Below, piece by piece: positions 278 to 23,978 of a DNA stretch of 64,000 nt. The notes under the pieces are model-generated. The model worked only from the letters and a program-made list of their open reading frames with translations. It was not told the DNA's origin and did not search any database. Location: positions 1 to 64,000 of the IMG/VR virus record IMGVR_UViG_3300048625_000156; one strand, given 5' to 3'. This DNA is from a virus. Each line of letters opens with the position of its first letter. Within the stretch, counting starts at the first letter, position 1. The position numbers and the translations under genes are program-made.

Positions 278-1297
278 ATGGCTCATGAACTAGAAATCAA
301 CTCAGAAACTGGCGAAGCGTCTTTTGCTAGCCTACGCCAACCTGCTTGGCATGGACTGGGAACAGTCTTCACCGAAGAAGTAAACACCGCTAAGATGTTG
401 GAACTCGCACACCTTGACAACTGGAATGTTCGTCTTGAAGATGTGGCAATGCCAGAGGGCTTCAACTCTGACAAGGGCTACTCGTTCGTTACTCGCACTA
501 ACCCTTTCGACAAAACTCAGAATGATGTTCTGGGCGTTGTTGGTGAGCGTTATGTCCCACTCCAGAATGAGGACTTGTTCACATTTGCGGACAACCTGCT
601 AGACGGTGGTGGTCGTTGGGAAACTGCTGGCTCTATCAAGGGTGGTCGTCAGGTCTTCGGTGCTTTGGCTCTTGAGCGTGAAACCGTTCTTGACCCTAAT
701 GGCGTGTCTGACAAAATCAACACCTATCTGCTAATCAACACTTCTCACGATGGTTCTGTTGCCATTCAGGCAAGTATCACGCCTGTTCGTGTTGTTTGTG
801 CTAACACTCTCAACCTTGCTCTGTCTTCATTCAAGGGCAAGAACTCTGCTAAGCAGTCATTCAAAATCCGACACACTCAGACCGCTGAGGGTAAAGTTGC
901 TGTTGCTCGTGAAGCATTGGGACTTGCCAACAAATACATGGATGAGTTTGACATCATGGCAAAGGCTATGATTGAGAAGACTATTACTGACAACCAGTTT
1001 ATGGACATCATCAACCTTGCTTACCCTGCTCCAGAAAAAGACGCTAAGGGTTCATTCAAGAAGCACAACGACAAGGTGGACAGCCTGTTGGCAATCTATC
1101 GTGGACAGTTCAACGACACCATTGCGGACACCGCTTGGGGAGCATTCAACGCTTTGACTGAGCGTTTGGACTGGCACAGGACTGGTCGTGGTGGAAGCAA
1201 CGAGAGCATTCTCGCTTCGGCTTCTGGCTTTGACCCTGTAATCAACGCAGAGAAGAACCGCTTGATGAAGTTGGTTCAACAGAGCGTAATGGCGTAA
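278..1297 (+). CDS. DUF932 / phage-plasmid-like (TIGR03299-type) protein
   Basis: MAHE...PAWHGLG...Y.PLQN...ETAGS..GGRQVF...SHDGS...TPVRVVCANTL motifs; start moved to ATG 278 behind AAAGGAG. Confidence 0.85.
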   Translation: MAHELEINSETGEASFASLRQPAWHGLGTVFTEEVNTAKMLELAHLDNWNVRLEDVAMPEGFNSDKGYSFVTRTNPFDKTQNDVLGVVGERYVPLQNEDLFTFADNLLDGGGRWETAGSIKGGRQVFGALALERETVLDPNGVSDKINTYLLINTSHDGSVAIQASITPVRVVCANTLNLALSSFKGKNSAKQSFKIRHTQTAEGKVAVAREALGLANKYMDEFDIMAKAMIEKTITDNQFMDIINLAYPAPEKDAKGSFKKHNDKVDSLLAIYRGQFNDTIADTAWGAFNALTERLDWHRTGRGGSNESILASASGFDPVINAEKNRLMKLVQQSVMA

Positions 1298-5195: not shown

Positions 5196-6085
5196 CTCCT
5201 GGTCGGCAGCTGTGTATAACTCTGTGGATAACTTTTTCAAACAATCCTAGTAGACATTACGAACATTACGAACCTTTCCCCAAAATCCCCAAACATTGTT
5301 TGTTTTGTTTGTCAAAAAAAGACATTACGAACGACCAAATATTTTTCCCCAATCATGGACATTAAATGTCAGTGGTATATGCTATAGGTGTATATACTAT
5401 ACTAGGGATTATAGAGATCAATTACAATGCCCCCCATTTTTGGGAGGGCATCTATTACGATCCCATTACAATTTCCTCTAGTATAAGACAATACACCTAT
5501 ACATCTATAGGTATTACGAACACACCATATTTTTCCCTGAAAGTTGTATGTTTTGATACATTTCTATTTGTTTTGATAAGGTTTTGAGCTAAATGAGAAC
5601 GATTATCAATAGTTTTTTATATAACAATTTGGTAAAAAAGCTTGACAAATTGGTGGATATGTGCATACTTGACAAATCAGGATATGTGTGGTATGTGGTT
5701 TGGGGATAGGTATATGCGGATAGAAATGTTTGCCAGGCTTCTTAAATATGCTCTATTACCCATATCCTTTTCCAAACACTCTCTTATTGACAACAGTTAT
5801 CAACAACAGTAAGATGAATCTGTGGATAACTATGTGTAAAACCTATCCTAAACAGCCTTCTAAGGGGTCTAGGAGGACTTATCTACATCTCCTAGGTCAT
5901 AATATTCGGAGGGTATTAAAGACTCCATATACAGCAGATAGGCAGCTATCAGGACATCCCCATAGACCTCTATCTCCACATCTCCTGATCTGATAGTATA
6001 CAGCCTATCAGGGAATATGGGATATTTGAACTTAGGTGTTTCCATTAGGGATTATCCTTATAGTTTATACTAGGGATTACGAAGC
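5196..6085. other. Non-coding repeat-rich region with DnaA boxes (origin-like or DnaA-titrating)
   Basis: TGTGTATAA 5211, TGTGGATAA 5223, TTATCAACA 5797, TGTGGATAA 5821, TGTGTAAAA 5833; TTACGAA and TAGGGATTA repeats. Confidence 0.55.
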
Positions 6086-12499: not shown

Positions 12500-12529
12500 T
12501 TTACTCTTTTCTGTATATATAAATTGTAG

Positions 12530-12602
12530 CACCCCTAGTAGGATTCGAACCCACGGCACACAGGGTAGAAACCTGTTGCTCTATCCACTGAGCTATAGGG
12601 GC
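12530..12602 (-). tRNA. tRNA-Arg(UCU)
   Basis: Cloverleaf, anticodon stem ACAGG/CCTGT, GGTTCGAATCC T-arm. Confidence 0.9.
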
Positions 12603-20155: not shown

Positions 20156-20992
20156 TTATCCAAGCTTTGCCCAAGTCTTTGGACCGATGATTCCATCAGC
20201 AGTTAGACCATGCTTCTTCTGAAGAGCTTTAACTGCGTTAGCTGTGGCTGGACCAAAAGCTCCGTCTACTGTTAGACCTAGCTTCTTCTGGATATACTTA
20301 ACAGCTTCTCCCTTAGATCCCTGCTTGATATACTTACCAGGATAAGCCATCTTTGCAGCTGATGGCTTTGGTGCAACCTCTGCTGGATCTACAACCTTTG
20401 CCTCTTCTGGTACTTCTACCGTTGGTACGTCTGGAAGTGAGTGAGTAGGTGCTACAGTTACTGGAGCAGACTCTGGTGTGTCTTTGTGAGCTTCCTCGTT
20501 AACCTTTTCCCATTCAATAACAGCCTTGATGAAAGCCATAGGGTCGTAGTAACCCTTACCGTTGTGGAAGCCAGCCATTGGCTGACCCTTAATGTGACCT
20601 GCCCAGATTTCCCAGTGAAGGTGCTTACCAGTTGCGAAACCAGTTTCACCCATCTTACCAACTACCTGACCAGCAGTAATACGCTGACCCTTCTTGACCT
20701 TGATCGAACCCTTTACCATGTGGAAGTAGGTCCATGTGACCTTCTTGCCCATGACTGTGGACTGAACAATGATTGAGTGACCACCAGATGTTGGTGAGTC
20801 GTTTGGCTTGACAGCAATTACCTTACCATCTGCCCATGCTTCTAGGTAAGTGGTTGCTCCACCCTGCCAGATGTCGACACCATTGTGGTGCTTCTTTACT
20901 TTCTTAATTGGGTGCATTCTCCAACCAAATGGTGAAGTTACCTTCCAGGCTTTTCCTGGTTTCCCATCTACTGGGTATTGTGATTTTGCCAT
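20156..20992 (-). CDS. Endolysin, M23 peptidase plus peptidoglycan-binding domain
   Basis: HNGVD, YFH, TGKHLHWE; C-terminal DGAFGPAT/DGIIGPKTW. Confidence 0.9.
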   Translation of the reverse strand: MAKSQYPVDGKPGKAWKVTSPFGWRMHPIKKVKKHHNGVDIWQGGATTYLEAWADGKVIAVKPNDSPTSGGHSIIVQSTVMGKKVTWTYFHMVKGSIKVKKGQRITAGQVVGKMGETGFATGKHLHWEIWAGHIKGQPMAGFHNGKGYYDPMAFIKAVIEWEKVNEEAHKDTPESAPVTVAPTHSLPDVPTVEVPEEAKVVDPAEVAPKPSAAKMAYPGKYIKQGSKGEAVKYIQKKLGLTVDGAFGPATANAVKALQKKHGLTADGIIGPKTWAKLG

Positions 20993-21055
20993 AATGCATC
21001 ATCTCCTTCTGTATAATTATACAGCATAAAAGTCCTGATCAGCAAGTAGTTTTTG

Positions 21056-21126
21056 CTCTCCCCCCTGGATTCGAACCAAGAATATCTGAGTCAAAGTCAG
21101 AGGTGTTGCCGTTACACTAAGGGAGA
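21056..21126 (-). tRNA. tRNA-Gln(UUG)
   Basis: Cloverleaf; anticodon loop CT-TTG-AC. Confidence 0.9.
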
Positions 21127-21127
21127 T

Positions 21128-21201
21128 TGGCTTCCTTGTCTGGATTCGAACCAAAACTAACAGATTCAGAGTCTGTGATGCTACCGTTACATTACAAGGA
21201 A
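21128..21201 (-). tRNA. tRNA-Gln(CUG)
   Basis: Cloverleaf with CCA. Confidence 0.9.
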
Positions 21202-21202
21202 A

Positions 21203-21279
21203 TGGTACACCTGGCTGGACTTGAACCAGCGACCTCATTCTTATCAGGAATGTATTCTAACCAACTGAAATACAGGTGT
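21203..21279 (-). tRNA. tRNA-Ile(GAU)
   Basis: Cloverleaf with CCA. Confidence 0.9.
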
Positions 21280-21280
21280 A

Positions 21281-21354
21281 TGGTGGACTTGCATGGTATC
21301 GAACCATGTTCCGCAGATTAAGAGTCTGCTGCATCACCTTAATGCTTCAAGTCC
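21281..21354 (-). tRNA. tRNA-Lys(CUU)
   Basis: Cloverleaf with CCA. Confidence 0.88.
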
Positions 21355-21358
21355 AGAG

Positions 21359-21429
21359 TGGGTCATCATGGTAACGATCCATGTTCCACGGATTAAAAGT
21401 CCGTTGCATCACCTTAATGCTTATAACCC
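21359..21429 (-). tRNA. tRNA-Lys(UUU)
   Basis: Cloverleaf; atypical T-loop ATCGTTA. Confidence 0.82.
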
Positions 21430-21430
21430 C

Positions 21431-21518
21431 TGGCGGAAATAGCAGGATTCGAACCTACGGTAGATTGTTCTACGACGGTTTAGCAAACCGTTGCCTTAAG
21501 CCTCTCAGCCATATTTCC
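21431..21518 (-). tRNA. tRNA-Ser(GCU)
   Basis: Long variable arm, CCA. Confidence 0.9.
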
Positions 21519-21625
21519 ATTTGTAGTAGCAACTTATTAAGTTCTACTACTTGAGACGTGACTCTCTTTTCTGCAGCATTCCTGCATCCGAATACCCCCC
21601 AAGTCCAGTACCATACAGGGGATCG

Positions 21626-21698
21626 TACTCGTGGTGAGACTTGAACTCACACTGTCTAGTTCCTAAGACTAGTGCCTCTGCCATTGGGCTACACGAGC
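21626..21698 (-). tRNA. tRNA-Leu(UAG), short variable loop
   Basis: Leu-type D arm, A73, only a 5-nt variable region. Confidence 0.85.
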
Positions 21699-21699
21699 T

Positions 21700-21787
21700 T
21701 GGCGGAAGGTGGGGGAATCGAACCCCCAAGGCTTTTACACTCAACTGTTTTCAAAACAGGCTCCATCGCCAATTGGATTGACCTTCC
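21700..21787 (-). tRNA. tRNA-Ser(UGA)
   Basis: Long variable arm, G73, CCA. Confidence 0.88.
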
Positions 21788-21788
21788 G

Positions 21789-21860
21789 TACCGATAAAAG
21801 GATTCGAACCTTTAACCTCTTGCTTCGTAGGCAAGTACTCTTCCATTGAGTTATATCGGT
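21789..21860 (-). tRNA. tRNA-Arg(ACG)
   Basis: Cloverleaf. Confidence 0.88.
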
Positions 21861-21861
21861 C

Positions 21862-21939
21862 TGGTCCAGATAGGAGGATTCGAACCTCCGACCCCTCGGT
21901 CCCAAACCGAGTGCTCTAGCCAAACTGAGCTATATCTAG
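21862..21939 (-). tRNA. tRNA-Pro(UGG)
   Basis: Cloverleaf with CCA. Confidence 0.9.
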
Positions 21940-21943
21940 ACAG

Positions 21944-22016
21944 TGGATCTTGGGAGATTTGAACTCCCGACTTTCTGCTTGCAAAGCAGACACTCTACCA
22001 ACTGAGTTAAAGACCC
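21944..22016 (-). tRNA. tRNA-Ala(UGC)
   Basis: G3:U70 present. Confidence 0.9.
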
Positions 22017-22090
22017 TGGGGTGAACAGAGGGAATTGAACCCTCAACTCCTGGACCACAACCAGGTGTTTTACCATTAAACTATGCACAC
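22017..22090 (-). tRNA. tRNA-His(GUG)
   Basis: Cloverleaf, C73, CCA. Confidence 0.88.
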
Positions 22091-22092
22091 AG

Positions 22093-22172
22093 TCCCTGTT
22101 GTAAGAATCGAACTTACCATGCCATTGGCGACGGTTTTACAGACCGCTTCTCCACCTTGGAGAATAACAGGG
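22093..22172 (-). tRNA. tRNA-Tyr(GUA) with C1:G72
   Basis: Acceptor CCCTGTT/AACAGGG, long variable arm. Confidence 0.85.
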
Positions 22173-22173
22173 T

Positions 22174-22251
22174 TGGTTGCGGAGGTGGGATTCGAACCCA
22201 CGACCTTGAGCTTATGAGGCTCCTGAGCTGACCTAGCTGCTCCACTCCGCA
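22174..22251 (-). tRNA. tRNA-Met(CAU), initiator-like
   Basis: TGCGGAG...GGAGCAGC...CCGCAACCA like fMet, but U1:A72 and no 3-GC anticodon stem. Confidence 0.85.
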
Positions 22252-22265
22252 ATGCTTATTTATCT

Positions 22266-22280
22266 CTATTTAGTTTTCAA
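22266..22280 (-). promoter_or_regulatory. boxA-like antitermination element
   Basis: TTGAAAACTAAATAG in the Phe-Met spacer resembles Gram-positive rrn boxA (TTTGARAACT). Confidence 0.5.
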
Positions 22281-22281
22281 G

Positions 22282-22354
22282 TCCTACCAACTGGAATCGA
22301 ACCAGTAACCTTCTGTGCTTCAAACAGATGCTCTCCCAATTGAGCTATAGCAGG
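22282..22354 (-). tRNA. tRNA-Phe(GAA)
   Basis: Cloverleaf; loop TT-GAA-GC. Confidence 0.85.
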
Positions 22355-22428
22355 TGGCAAAGTATGTAGGAATCGAACCCACGCCAACAGGGTTGGAAGC
22401 TGTTGTGCTACCACTACACCAATACGAT
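22355..22428 (-). tRNA. tRNA-Trp(CCA)
   Basis: Cloverleaf with CCA; mismatches at acceptor pairs 2 and 3 and at 31:39. Confidence 0.8.
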
Positions 22429-22496
22429 ATGATTGTTAGGAATTCACTAGATTTGTGTGATTTGGGATGTTATTGAATTATGGAATTAAGCTGGGA
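22429..22496 (-). terminator. Putative Rho utilisation (rut) tract
   Basis: 68 nt with 19 C and 3 G on the transcribed strand, directly after the leader ORF stop. Confidence 0.55.
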
Positions 22497-22589
22497 TTAA
22501 ATCGACCACGCACGATAAATAGGGGCGTGTGACAGCTGACTAAATCGCTGCTTCATAACGCCTCCTTGATGTTTCATCGTGAATTCCAT
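22497..22589 (-). CDS. Putative leader (attenuator) peptide of the tRNA operon
   Basis: MEFTMKHQGGV-MKQRFSQLSHAPIYRAWSI; leaderless ATG 6 nt after -10, second in-frame ATG (22556) with AAGGAGG SD; codons mirror downstream tRNAs. Confidence 0.75.
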   Translation of the reverse strand: MEFTMKHQGGVMKQRFSQLSHAPIYRAWSI

Positions 22590-22595
22590 AACTAT

Positions 22596-22624
22596 ATTGT
22601 AGCATATATTTTATGCTTGTGCAA
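22596..22624 (-). promoter_or_regulatory. Internal promoter of the tRNA array
   Basis: TTGCAC-N17-TACAAT with extended TGn. Confidence 0.75.
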
Positions 22625-22639
22625 GTATTTCTTGCATCG

Positions 22640-22711
22640 TACCCCCAAGGAGAATTGAACTCCTGTTACCAAATTGAAAATCTGGGGTCTTGACCACTAG
22701 ACGATGGGGGC
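22640..22711 (-). tRNA. tRNA-Glu(UUC)
   Basis: Cloverleaf. Confidence 0.88.
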
Positions 22712-22712
22712 G

Positions 22713-22788
22713 TGGAGGTGTAGGTGAGAATCGAACTCACACTGAATAGTTTTGCAGACTACCACATTTGCCATTCTGTCACAACACC
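22713..22788 (-). tRNA. tRNA-Cys(GCA)
   Basis: U73, CCA. Confidence 0.85.
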
Positions 22789-22792
22789 ACTG

Positions 22793-22864
<72 letters not shown>

Positions 22865-23031
22865 AAGTGTAGGATCTTGGGTAATCACTCCCTCACCTAC
22901 TGAGTTATTGCTACATCGGTAACTAACCGCTGAGAGGATCTGACCTCACAAGGTAAGTTTATAGATACTTACATCTGGCAATATTATAACATAGAATTGC
23001 CCCACTACGTATAGGCGATTAATTCCTATAG

Positions 23032-23104
23032 CGTCTCCGATGGGATTTGAACCCACGATCCCCTGGCTGACAACCAGGTGCTTTAACCACTAAGCCACGG
23101 AGAC
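23032..23104 (-). tRNA. tRNA-Asp(GUC)
   Basis: Cloverleaf, G73. Confidence 0.9.
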
Positions 23105-23183
23105 TTGGGCACTTGGTCAGACTTTGTGCCTGACTGTAAAGGCACGAAATAGCTGCATACACAACCGTCTCTAGCAAGTACCG

Positions 23184-23254
23184 AGCGAATAGGGAGAATC
23201 GAACTCCCATAGTCTGCTTGGAAGGCAGAAGTTTTACCACTAAACTATATTCGC
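23184..23254 (-). tRNA. tRNA-Gly(UCC)
   Basis: GCG start, U73. Confidence 0.9.
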
Positions 23255-23418
23255 AGTTGAGGTATGCAGACAATCAATCCCATACCTCTGGGTCTTTTCC
23301 TAAGACGAGCGACCAACTCCGAACCGATAACGAGAGATTCCTACACGCTTACTGTGTCGCTGTAAGAGCGTTCATTTGTCCGAAATGAAACGGTTGTGAT
23401 AGTGATTAGCTATCATCG

Positions 23419-23504
23419 CTCCCAGAGTAGGAATCGAACCTACGACGCTCTTGCGAGAACAGATTAACAGTCTGGCGGTACCAGCCAACAGTACCCCTCT
23501 AGGA
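23419..23504 (-). tRNA. tRNA-Asn(GUU) with long variable arm
   Basis: TCC start, G73, extra CTC-GCAA-GAG hairpin. Confidence 0.8.
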
Positions 23505-23509
23505 ATATA

Positions 23510-23941
23510 CTACTTTATATAGTTTATTAATTTTAACATTGTTTCTGGATTATCTTTTAGTATTCCTAATGCCAAATTACATTCTCTACAAAGTAGCCCA
23601 CGAACACATTTGCCACAAGAGAAACTTCCACTGCAGCAAGAGTGGTCATGATCAATATTAGTTCCTTCATTTATCTGACAAGCATGACACTTTTCAGAGT
23701 GTTGAGAAACCAATTCTTCATATCTATATTGAGTTATATTATGACGTTTCCAGTTTGGCTTATAGTATGAATTCATTCTTACTTTTTCAGCTTTTTTATC
23801 TGGATTTATATTGTAATAATTAATCACATAGTCTGTATGGCATCTTTTACAAGTACCTCTGCGACCATCTTTATAATTTTTACCTTTTGCGAATAGATCA
23901 ATATCTTTTTCGATACCGCACTTTACGCAAATCTTTGTCAT
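23510..23941 (-). CDS. Endonuclease VII-family (His-Me) putative homing endonuclease
   Basis: IDHDH...[15 protein letters not shown]; N-terminal CxxC...CKRC; AT-rich. Confidence 0.85.
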
Positions 23942-23978
23942 ATTAACAGTATATCATAACTGTTAACGGTTTGTCAAG

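Follow-up and report, generated by a model that had tools for sequence, protein, structure and literature searches.

A phage tRNA array is interrupted by a promoter and a short translated-type leader, whose 19-codon open reading frame (ORF) uses exactly the 13 amino acids served by the 16 tRNA genes that follow it. The best reading of this arrangement, to which we assign a probability of about 0.4, is that the leader is a translation-gated attenuator of the Rho type, with an ORF that samples the aminoacyl-tRNA pools supplied by the downstream cassette. The leader may represent a new kind of tRNA-supply sensor, or the match may be coincidental.

Phage tRNA genes are usually viewed as passengers with constitutive expression, useful for correcting codon bias or for making good tRNAs cleaved by host defences. 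If the attenuator reading is true, phages would be shown to monitor the decoding capacity of the host and to regulate their own tRNA supply, and the leader would be the first case in which phage tRNA genes are controlled conditionally, as well as the first attenuator to sample most of the genetic code at once. Leader-peptide attenuation, which is known for one or a few amino acids and for protein operons, would then reach a dozen amino acids and include RNA genes, in a multiplexed form carried on a mobile phage cassette. As the earlier note had supposed, the literature searched describes no phage tRNA operon with a translated leader or conditional control. The element is small (~160 nt), self-contained and strongly conserved, and should the codon match prove accidental, what remains is a structured and conserved leader on a mobile tRNA cassette.

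Anatomy of the leader and its tRNA cassette

The window, that is the whole stretch of DNA analysed, comprises 64,000 nucleotides (positions 1 to 64,000 of IMG/VR record IMGVR_UViG_3300048625_000156) from an uncultured phage with a 94.8-kb genome, terminal repeats and ~43% GC content. Its terminase shares ~70% DNA identity with the terminase of Streptomyces phages from the Stanwilliamsviridae, and the phage tRNA set amounts to 22 genes for 19 amino acids. The array lies on the minus strand and starts with an older block in the order Asn, Gly, Asp, Thr, Cys and Glu, the final member of which is tRNA-Glu (22639-22711). After a gap of 210 nt (22638-22429) come the 16 cassette genes, within 21055-22428, in the order Trp, Phe, CAU, Tyr, His, Ala, Pro, Arg-ACG, Ser-UGA, Leu-UAG, Ser-GCU, Lys-UUU, Lys-CUU, Ile, Gln-CUG and Gln-UUG. 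The first protein gene 3' of the cassette (20156-20992, minus strand) encodes a lysin-like M23 peptidase with a peptidoglycan-binding domain. The earlier note had described the ~210-nt gap as the sole break in the array; the gap itself is confirmed, but the array contains further gaps of 166, 163, 106 and 78 nt.

Several of the cassette tRNAs deserve comment. The CAU tRNA is not initiator-like, and tRNA-Ser-UGA (21704-21787), which was missed by ARAGORN, is a long-arm tRNA according to Rfam with an anticodon loop that reads UGA. The gene at 21625-21698 (minus strand) appears from its sequence to be an unusual, type-I-like putative tRNA-Leu (UAG): it is only 74 nt long and lacks the long variable arm, while A73 and the D arm (3-bp stem, large loop) are Leu-like. 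tRNA-Trp (22355-22428, minus strand), the first gene 3' of the leader, is mispaired twice in the acceptor stem and once, C against C, in the anticodon stem, and its Rfam score of 46 bits is the lowest in the 16-tRNA block.

Within the gap, all of the parts described in the earlier note are present on the minus strand. The sigma-70-type promoter (22596-22624) consists of a -35 element TTGCAC (22624-22619), a 17-nt spacer containing an extended TG (22604-22603) and a -10 element TACAAT (22601-22596), and it is of the same class as other strong promoters of the phage. A possible leaderless ATG (22587-22589) follows the -10 element after 6 nt, with the predicted +1 at the seventh base past that element, and opens a 30-codon frame that is in register with the downstream ORF. 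The same promoter-to-ATG geometry occurs at an HNH-type endonuclease gene upstream of the array (143 aa; 23941-23977, minus strand; TTGACA-18-TGnTATACT, 6 nt, then the ATG at 23941) and at a 123-aa ORF behind a promoter at genome position 68743 (minus strand), which argues that this phage uses leaderless starts; such genes fit an actinobacterial host. A Shine-Dalgarno (SD) sequence, AAGGAGG (22561-22567), lies 4 nt upstream of the second in-frame ATG at 22556. This motif occurs nine times in the 94.8-kb genome, and five of the nine are ribosome-binding sites of long ORFs with spacings of 4-7 nt, so that the leader's site has the form and spacing seen at long phage genes.

The SD-led ORF (22497-22556) comprises 19 codons and a TAA stop and encodes the peptide MKQRFSQLSHAPIYRAWSI, in which each of the 13 amino acids used appears one to three times and never in tandem; there are no runs of regulatory codons. 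The peptide has no usable match in the protein atlas. A C-rich, G-poor tail (22429-22496; 68 nt, 19 C, 3 G, two UCCC motifs) begins at the stop codon, and across the minus strand of the genome no other 68-nt window has at least 19 C and at most 3 G. When both strands are considered, the only other such window is at 5738-5808 (plus strand). The minus strand of the gap contains no intrinsic terminator-like site, and an Rfam E-value scan of 20900-23700 returned the tRNAs and chance-level matches only, with no T-box or other family. We also looked for a leader before the lone tRNA-Arg(UCU) (12529-12602) and found none, a gene's stop codon lying only 5 nt upstream.

The leader RNA is predicted to fold (z = -3.45 overall). 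Its most distinctive element is a helix, H1, in which the 5' strand GGAATTCAC (22579-22587) forms a perfect 9-bp duplex of -13.8 kcal/mol with the 3' strand GTGAATTCC (22439-22447), located 10 nt upstream of tRNA-Trp, clamping the 5' end of the leader to the end of the tail. In 2000 shuffled sequences no helix was as good. The SD is partly paired with CGCCCCU within the ORF in a predicted hairpin (22567-22520) of -18.4 kcal/mol, and the tail is predicted to be largely single-stranded, with a mean unpaired probability of 0.73-0.83. Constrained folds with a ribosome placed on codons 7-16 bring about some pairing between the SD region and the tail, in a -8.6 kcal/mol duplex that is no better than those formed with shuffled tails. 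No statistically supported pairing was found in the leader for a stall-dependent alternative fold or an antiterminator.

Conservation and insertion of the cassette

Using the M23 peptidase gene as an anchor, we located 45 related loci. In most of these, Asn-(Gly)-Asp-Thr-(Glu) is followed directly by the peptidase gene, and the leader and 16-tRNA block are present at just one locus, L005 (the same contig as L047). Further copies were sought with degenerate patterns for the ORF, promoter, tail and tRNA junctions in viral contigs, and in a metagenome scan, genome scans and GenBank phages. The metagenome scan added six, giving at least eight copies including the query genome, and no more distant, diverged cassette appeared among the matches listed from viral contigs, GenBank phages and prokaryote genomes. 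All eight copies have an identical ORF and an identical tRNA set. The relatives run tRNA-Glu straight into the peptidase gene; the leader and the 16 tRNAs are an insertion with tRNA-Glu at its left edge, and the promoter, leader and tRNAs behave as one inserted unit.

The eight copies differ greatly in how much each part varies. In the peptidase gene, DNA identity averages 81%, with 496 of the first 961 alignment columns from the start variable, and the spacer 5' of that gene varies in 49 of 63 columns. Variation affects 17 of 73 columns in tRNA-Glu and 15 of 48 in the inter-tRNA spacers inside the cassette. By comparison, the whole leader varies in only 6 of 210 columns (Fisher p = 3e-8 against the intra-cassette spacers), and the ORF in 0 of 60. 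Helix H1 is likewise invariant. Of the six variable positions, three are in the -35 element and promoter spacer (22619, 22617 and 22607), one is at the tRNA-Glu junction and two are in the tail (2 of its 68 columns), where they form a linked pair that keeps the C count. Identity falls sharply at 22638/22639, and the conservation of the leader equals that of the cassette tRNAs. The low variability of the leader and its ORF relative to the cassette spacers shows that the whole leader is under purifying selection. The same invariance counts against the attenuator reading in one respect: with ORF and tRNA content fixed, the eight copies offer no variation from which coding selection, or covariation between the two, could be read.

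Other parts of the cassette are less uniform. A boxA-like motif, TTGAAAACTAAA, reported earlier in the Phe-Met spacer (22252-22280, minus strand), did not survive the comparison: the spacer reads TTGATAATTAAA in six of the seven other copies, with differences at bases 22276 and 22273, and the seventh (L171) ends before this spacer. An insert of 106 nt between tRNA-Leu and tRNA-Ser(GCU) (21519-21624, minus strand), which contains a long hairpin-like repeat GTAGTAG...CTACTAC, is found in the query genome only; the two tRNA genes abut in the six other copies that reach this point, L171 falling outside the comparison as it ends in tRNA-Trp. In tRNA-Lys(UUU) (21358-21429, minus strand), 64 of 96 alignment columns vary, far above its neighbours, a pattern that suggests allele replacement within the cassette.

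The degree of conservation bears directly on another account of the gap, namely a plain internal promoter followed by a non-translated 5' leader that serves as an RNase P/RNase E processing or insulating spacer, with an accidental ORF and an SD-like motif that is merely part of an RNA hairpin. The predicted -18.4 kcal/mol hairpin does enclose both the SD and the start codon, the genomic count of AAGGAGG is about that expected by chance, promoter-like sites occur in other gaps of the array too, and neither a terminator nor a switch structure was found in the leader. A promoter, however, needs only ~40 nt, whereas all 161 transcribed bases are conserved ~10-fold better than the cassette spacers; the SD-to-ATG geometry is that of real genes, and the composition match considered below would have to be a ~1e-6 accident. 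We consider this account distinctly unlikely.

The codon inventory of the leader ORF

The central claim of the earlier note, that the amino acids of the SD-led ORF are the 13 served by the 16 downstream tRNAs with the other seven absent, is correct, although the Met match is trivial because the start codon is the ORF's only Met and the CAU tRNA is not of the initiator type. Codon choice also follows what the anticodons require, with Arg encoded by CGN only, Leu by CTN only, and Ser by codons from both boxes. The further claim that the codon boxes match holds for all 18 sense codons if U34 tRNAs read whole family boxes; under strict wobble it holds for 16-17 of the 18, GCC and CCT being unread by the UGC and UGG tRNAs.

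The probability that a 19-codon ORF would avoid the seven amino acids and cover the twelve non-Met ones by chance is 3e-7 using proteome frequencies and 4e-6 using the local base composition; at the codon level, with relaxed wobble (U34 reading whole boxes), it is 8e-8 to 2e-7. We compared these figures with 13,247 real ORF variants of 17-21 codons drawn from 1.6 Mb of phage DNA. Sixty-nine of the 13,247 avoid the seven amino acids, and among these ten residues are covered by 10, eleven by 1 and twelve by 0. Coverage drops about ten-fold per step, all 13 are covered by the leader ORF alone, and extrapolation from this set gives ~1e-6. Composition model and real ORFs agree on a value of ~1e-6 per ORF, and the correspondence of ORF codons and tRNAs is far above chance for a single ORF. 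Since the match was singled out post hoc in a very large scan, an event of 1e-6 is not impossible.

The earlier observation that Val and the amino acids of the upstream tRNAs are absent is true from the SD-led start but does not extend to the 30-codon leaderless frame, which adds Glu, Thr, Gly, Gly and Val, in an array without a Val tRNA; for this longer frame the match has p ~1.3e-3. The exact match depends on choosing the SD-led, internal start. Two other conserved features, helix H1 and the SD, largely dictate the extra codons of the longer frame. We also considered whether the order of residues tracks the order of the tRNA genes and rejected the idea: there are 3 adjacent matches against 3.1 expected, and the His-Ala-Pro coincidence is meaningless.

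No general rule emerges from other phages. In ~200 other gaps of phage tRNA arrays, comparing ~2000 small-ORF variants in sense and antisense orientation and against true and permuted downstream sets, we found no significant excess of leader/tRNA matching over the antisense or permuted controls, and none of the variants was both 100% in-set and fully covering. The cultured relatives Blueeyedbeauty and Coruscant show no leader/tRNA matching either. The leader stands by itself rather than as a member of a visible class. Cultured relatives and other phages commonly have small ORFs between their tRNA genes. One gap of 389 nt (positions 785-1173, plus strand, of L077, IMGVR_UViG_3300028800_000612), preceding tRNA-Cys, Tyr, Lys and Trp, contains two small Cys-rich genes, one for a peptide of 29 aa, 9 of them Cys and 7 Tyr, that follows AAAGGAG and the other for an 89-aa lipoprotein-like protein; Cys-rich genes may be co-located with tRNA-Cys here, or this may be chance.

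These findings give weight to a serious rival of the attenuator reading, a functional leader with a coincidental ORF inventory. RNase P cleavage at tRNA-Trp would free a stable RNA of ~160 nt with its ends clamped by H1, which could act as a small mRNA for a basic peptide of 19 or 30 aa and/or as a regulatory RNA, rich in C, that base-pairs through its unpaired UCCC motifs with G-rich ribosome-binding sites in the manner of 6C and RsaE-type RNAs. Such an RNA would account for the highly non-random end-to-end helix and the overall fold, and conservation at the nucleotide level throughout the leader (159 of 161 transcribed positions) fits a function of the RNA itself. The unpaired C-rich tail with its two UCCC motifs is in keeping with it, as are the frequency of small ORFs between tRNA genes elsewhere, for example the two real small genes in the L077 gap, and the lack of general codon/tRNA matching in other phages. 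Yet it requires the ~1e-6 chance event, has neither an Rfam family match nor a relative of the peptide in the protein atlas, and leaves unexplained why the C-rich tract starts exactly at the stop codon. The resemblance to 6C and RsaE-type RNAs lies in the unpaired C-rich stretch with UCCC motifs and the helix-clamped ends; there is no match in sequence or structure, and the C-rich part of the leader is a linear tail rather than a set of hairpin loops. A role of the leader RNA in trans is speculative, and on balance we judge this rival unlikely, if still to be taken seriously.

Proposed mechanism and comparison with known systems

Under the attenuator reading, the 210 bases would hold the promoter of a self-contained 16-tRNA cassette that is shared horizontally, together with its translated 5' leader. 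Host RNA polymerase would start at about 22589, and ribosomes would enter at the +1 AUG, at the strong SD-led AUG (22556) or at both, to read a test ORF in which every non-Met amino acid served by the cassette, 12 in all, has one codon or more. The stop codon adjoins an unstructured, rut-like tract, the genome's extreme in high C and low G and a putative Rho loading site. When decoding is fast, the ribosome would leave and the tract would lie bare, so that many polymerases would be halted before or within the first tRNAs; when a sampled aminoacyl-tRNA pool is low, a ribosome stalled on the leader would hinder Rho and more polymerases would pass into the tRNA genes. As an alternative to a single stall, a queue of ribosomes fed by the two in-frame starts could have the same effect. 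It is a tentative proposal that one ORF could serve in this way as a multiplexed decoding test, in which a shortfall in any of ~12 aminoacyl-tRNA pools sets Rho-type transcription of the cassette; such shortfalls might come from a poor codon fit to a high-GC host, from host shut-off or from defences that cleave tRNAs.

We infer that the leader is translated, that Rho acts and which way the response runs, and the link to anticodon nucleases, with the inducible anti-defence role that the earlier note had attached to it, is pure conjecture. The earlier note's reading of the ORF as a multiplexed sensor agrees with the anatomy, the codon/tRNA match, the evidence for selection and the behaviour of the cassette as one inserted unit, and finds no counterpart in a terminator, a supported switch pairing or a general trend. 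The mechanism is the weakest link of the attenuator reading, because by simple geometry direct shielding of the tail by a stalled ribosome is possible only from the last few codons, and a stall early in the 19-codon ORF would not physically cover the tail. Two further features count against it: there are no amino-acid runs, unlike in known amino-acid attenuators, and the SD would be partly sequestered in the predicted hairpin of -18 kcal/mol.

The geometry raises the possibility of a sensor with the opposite sign, acting through polarity. In this case a stall would uncouple ribosome and polymerase, leaving the tail and the 3' strand of H1 bare for Rho to terminate transcription, and the cassette and lysin gene would be transcribed only when all of the sampled tRNAs decode well, as a feed-forward gate once phage tRNAs accumulate. 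A ribosome that stalls within the first two thirds of the ORF cannot shield the tail, Rho termination is known to follow when a stall uncouples ribosome and polymerase (PMC5021804), and many of the ORF codons end in A or T, which would be slow in a high-GC actinobacterial host as inferred from the kinship with Streptomyces phages. The logic is weak, however, with fewer tRNAs made just when they are needed, the basis is as indirect as that of the main model, and the characterised uORF/Rho attenuators all answer stalling with read-through (PMC12360218). We regard this version as improbable. If the leader is a sensor at all, shortage would probably give read-through, a direction we favour by analogy because every known uORF/Rho attenuator behaves so.

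Of the systems to which the attenuator reading can be compared, T-box riboswitches are similar in that they, too, lie in cis in a leader, respond to tRNA status and regulate genes for aminoacylation or supply, but they bind one uncharged tRNA directly and do not need translation, and the leader has no Rfam T-box match. Phage tRNA arrays have been discussed as codon supplements or as counter-defence (PMC10264068, PMC11555353), and the present array resembles these as a large set in a low-GC phage that is kin to many-tRNA Streptomyces phages. The trpL, hisL, thrL and 'multivalent' ilvL leaders share the idea that leader codons report the supply of charged tRNAs relevant to the operon, and ilvL and thrL sense more than one amino acid, as we propose here. 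Leaders of the trpL/hisL type, however, have runs of regulatory codons and terminator/antiterminator hairpins, whereas the phage leader is without runs, intrinsic terminator or U tract.

The layout of the phage leader is, by analogy, that of the uORF-dependent Rho attenuators rather than of the trpL/hisL type. This group includes tnaC, speFL, cruR, mgtL/corL/mgtM, toiL and the tufB leader (PMC12360218, PMC12121999). The phage leader differs from these in preceding tRNAs and not a translated mRNA, in having neither an arrest-peptide motif nor a small-molecule ligand, and in sampling 12-13 amino acids once or twice each instead of a single signal; it also lacks a supported alternative fold, and the role of Rho is putative here. 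What they have in common is a promoter-proximal short ORF with its own ribosome-binding site, a C-rich, G-poor unstructured tract at or beside the stop codon (beginning at the stop codon itself in tnaC and speFL, as in the phage; PMC12360218), and the dwell time of ribosomes on the uORF as the presumed input. The tufB leader comes closest in its logic, since there too a signal of translation capacity is coupled to a gene of the translation apparatus.
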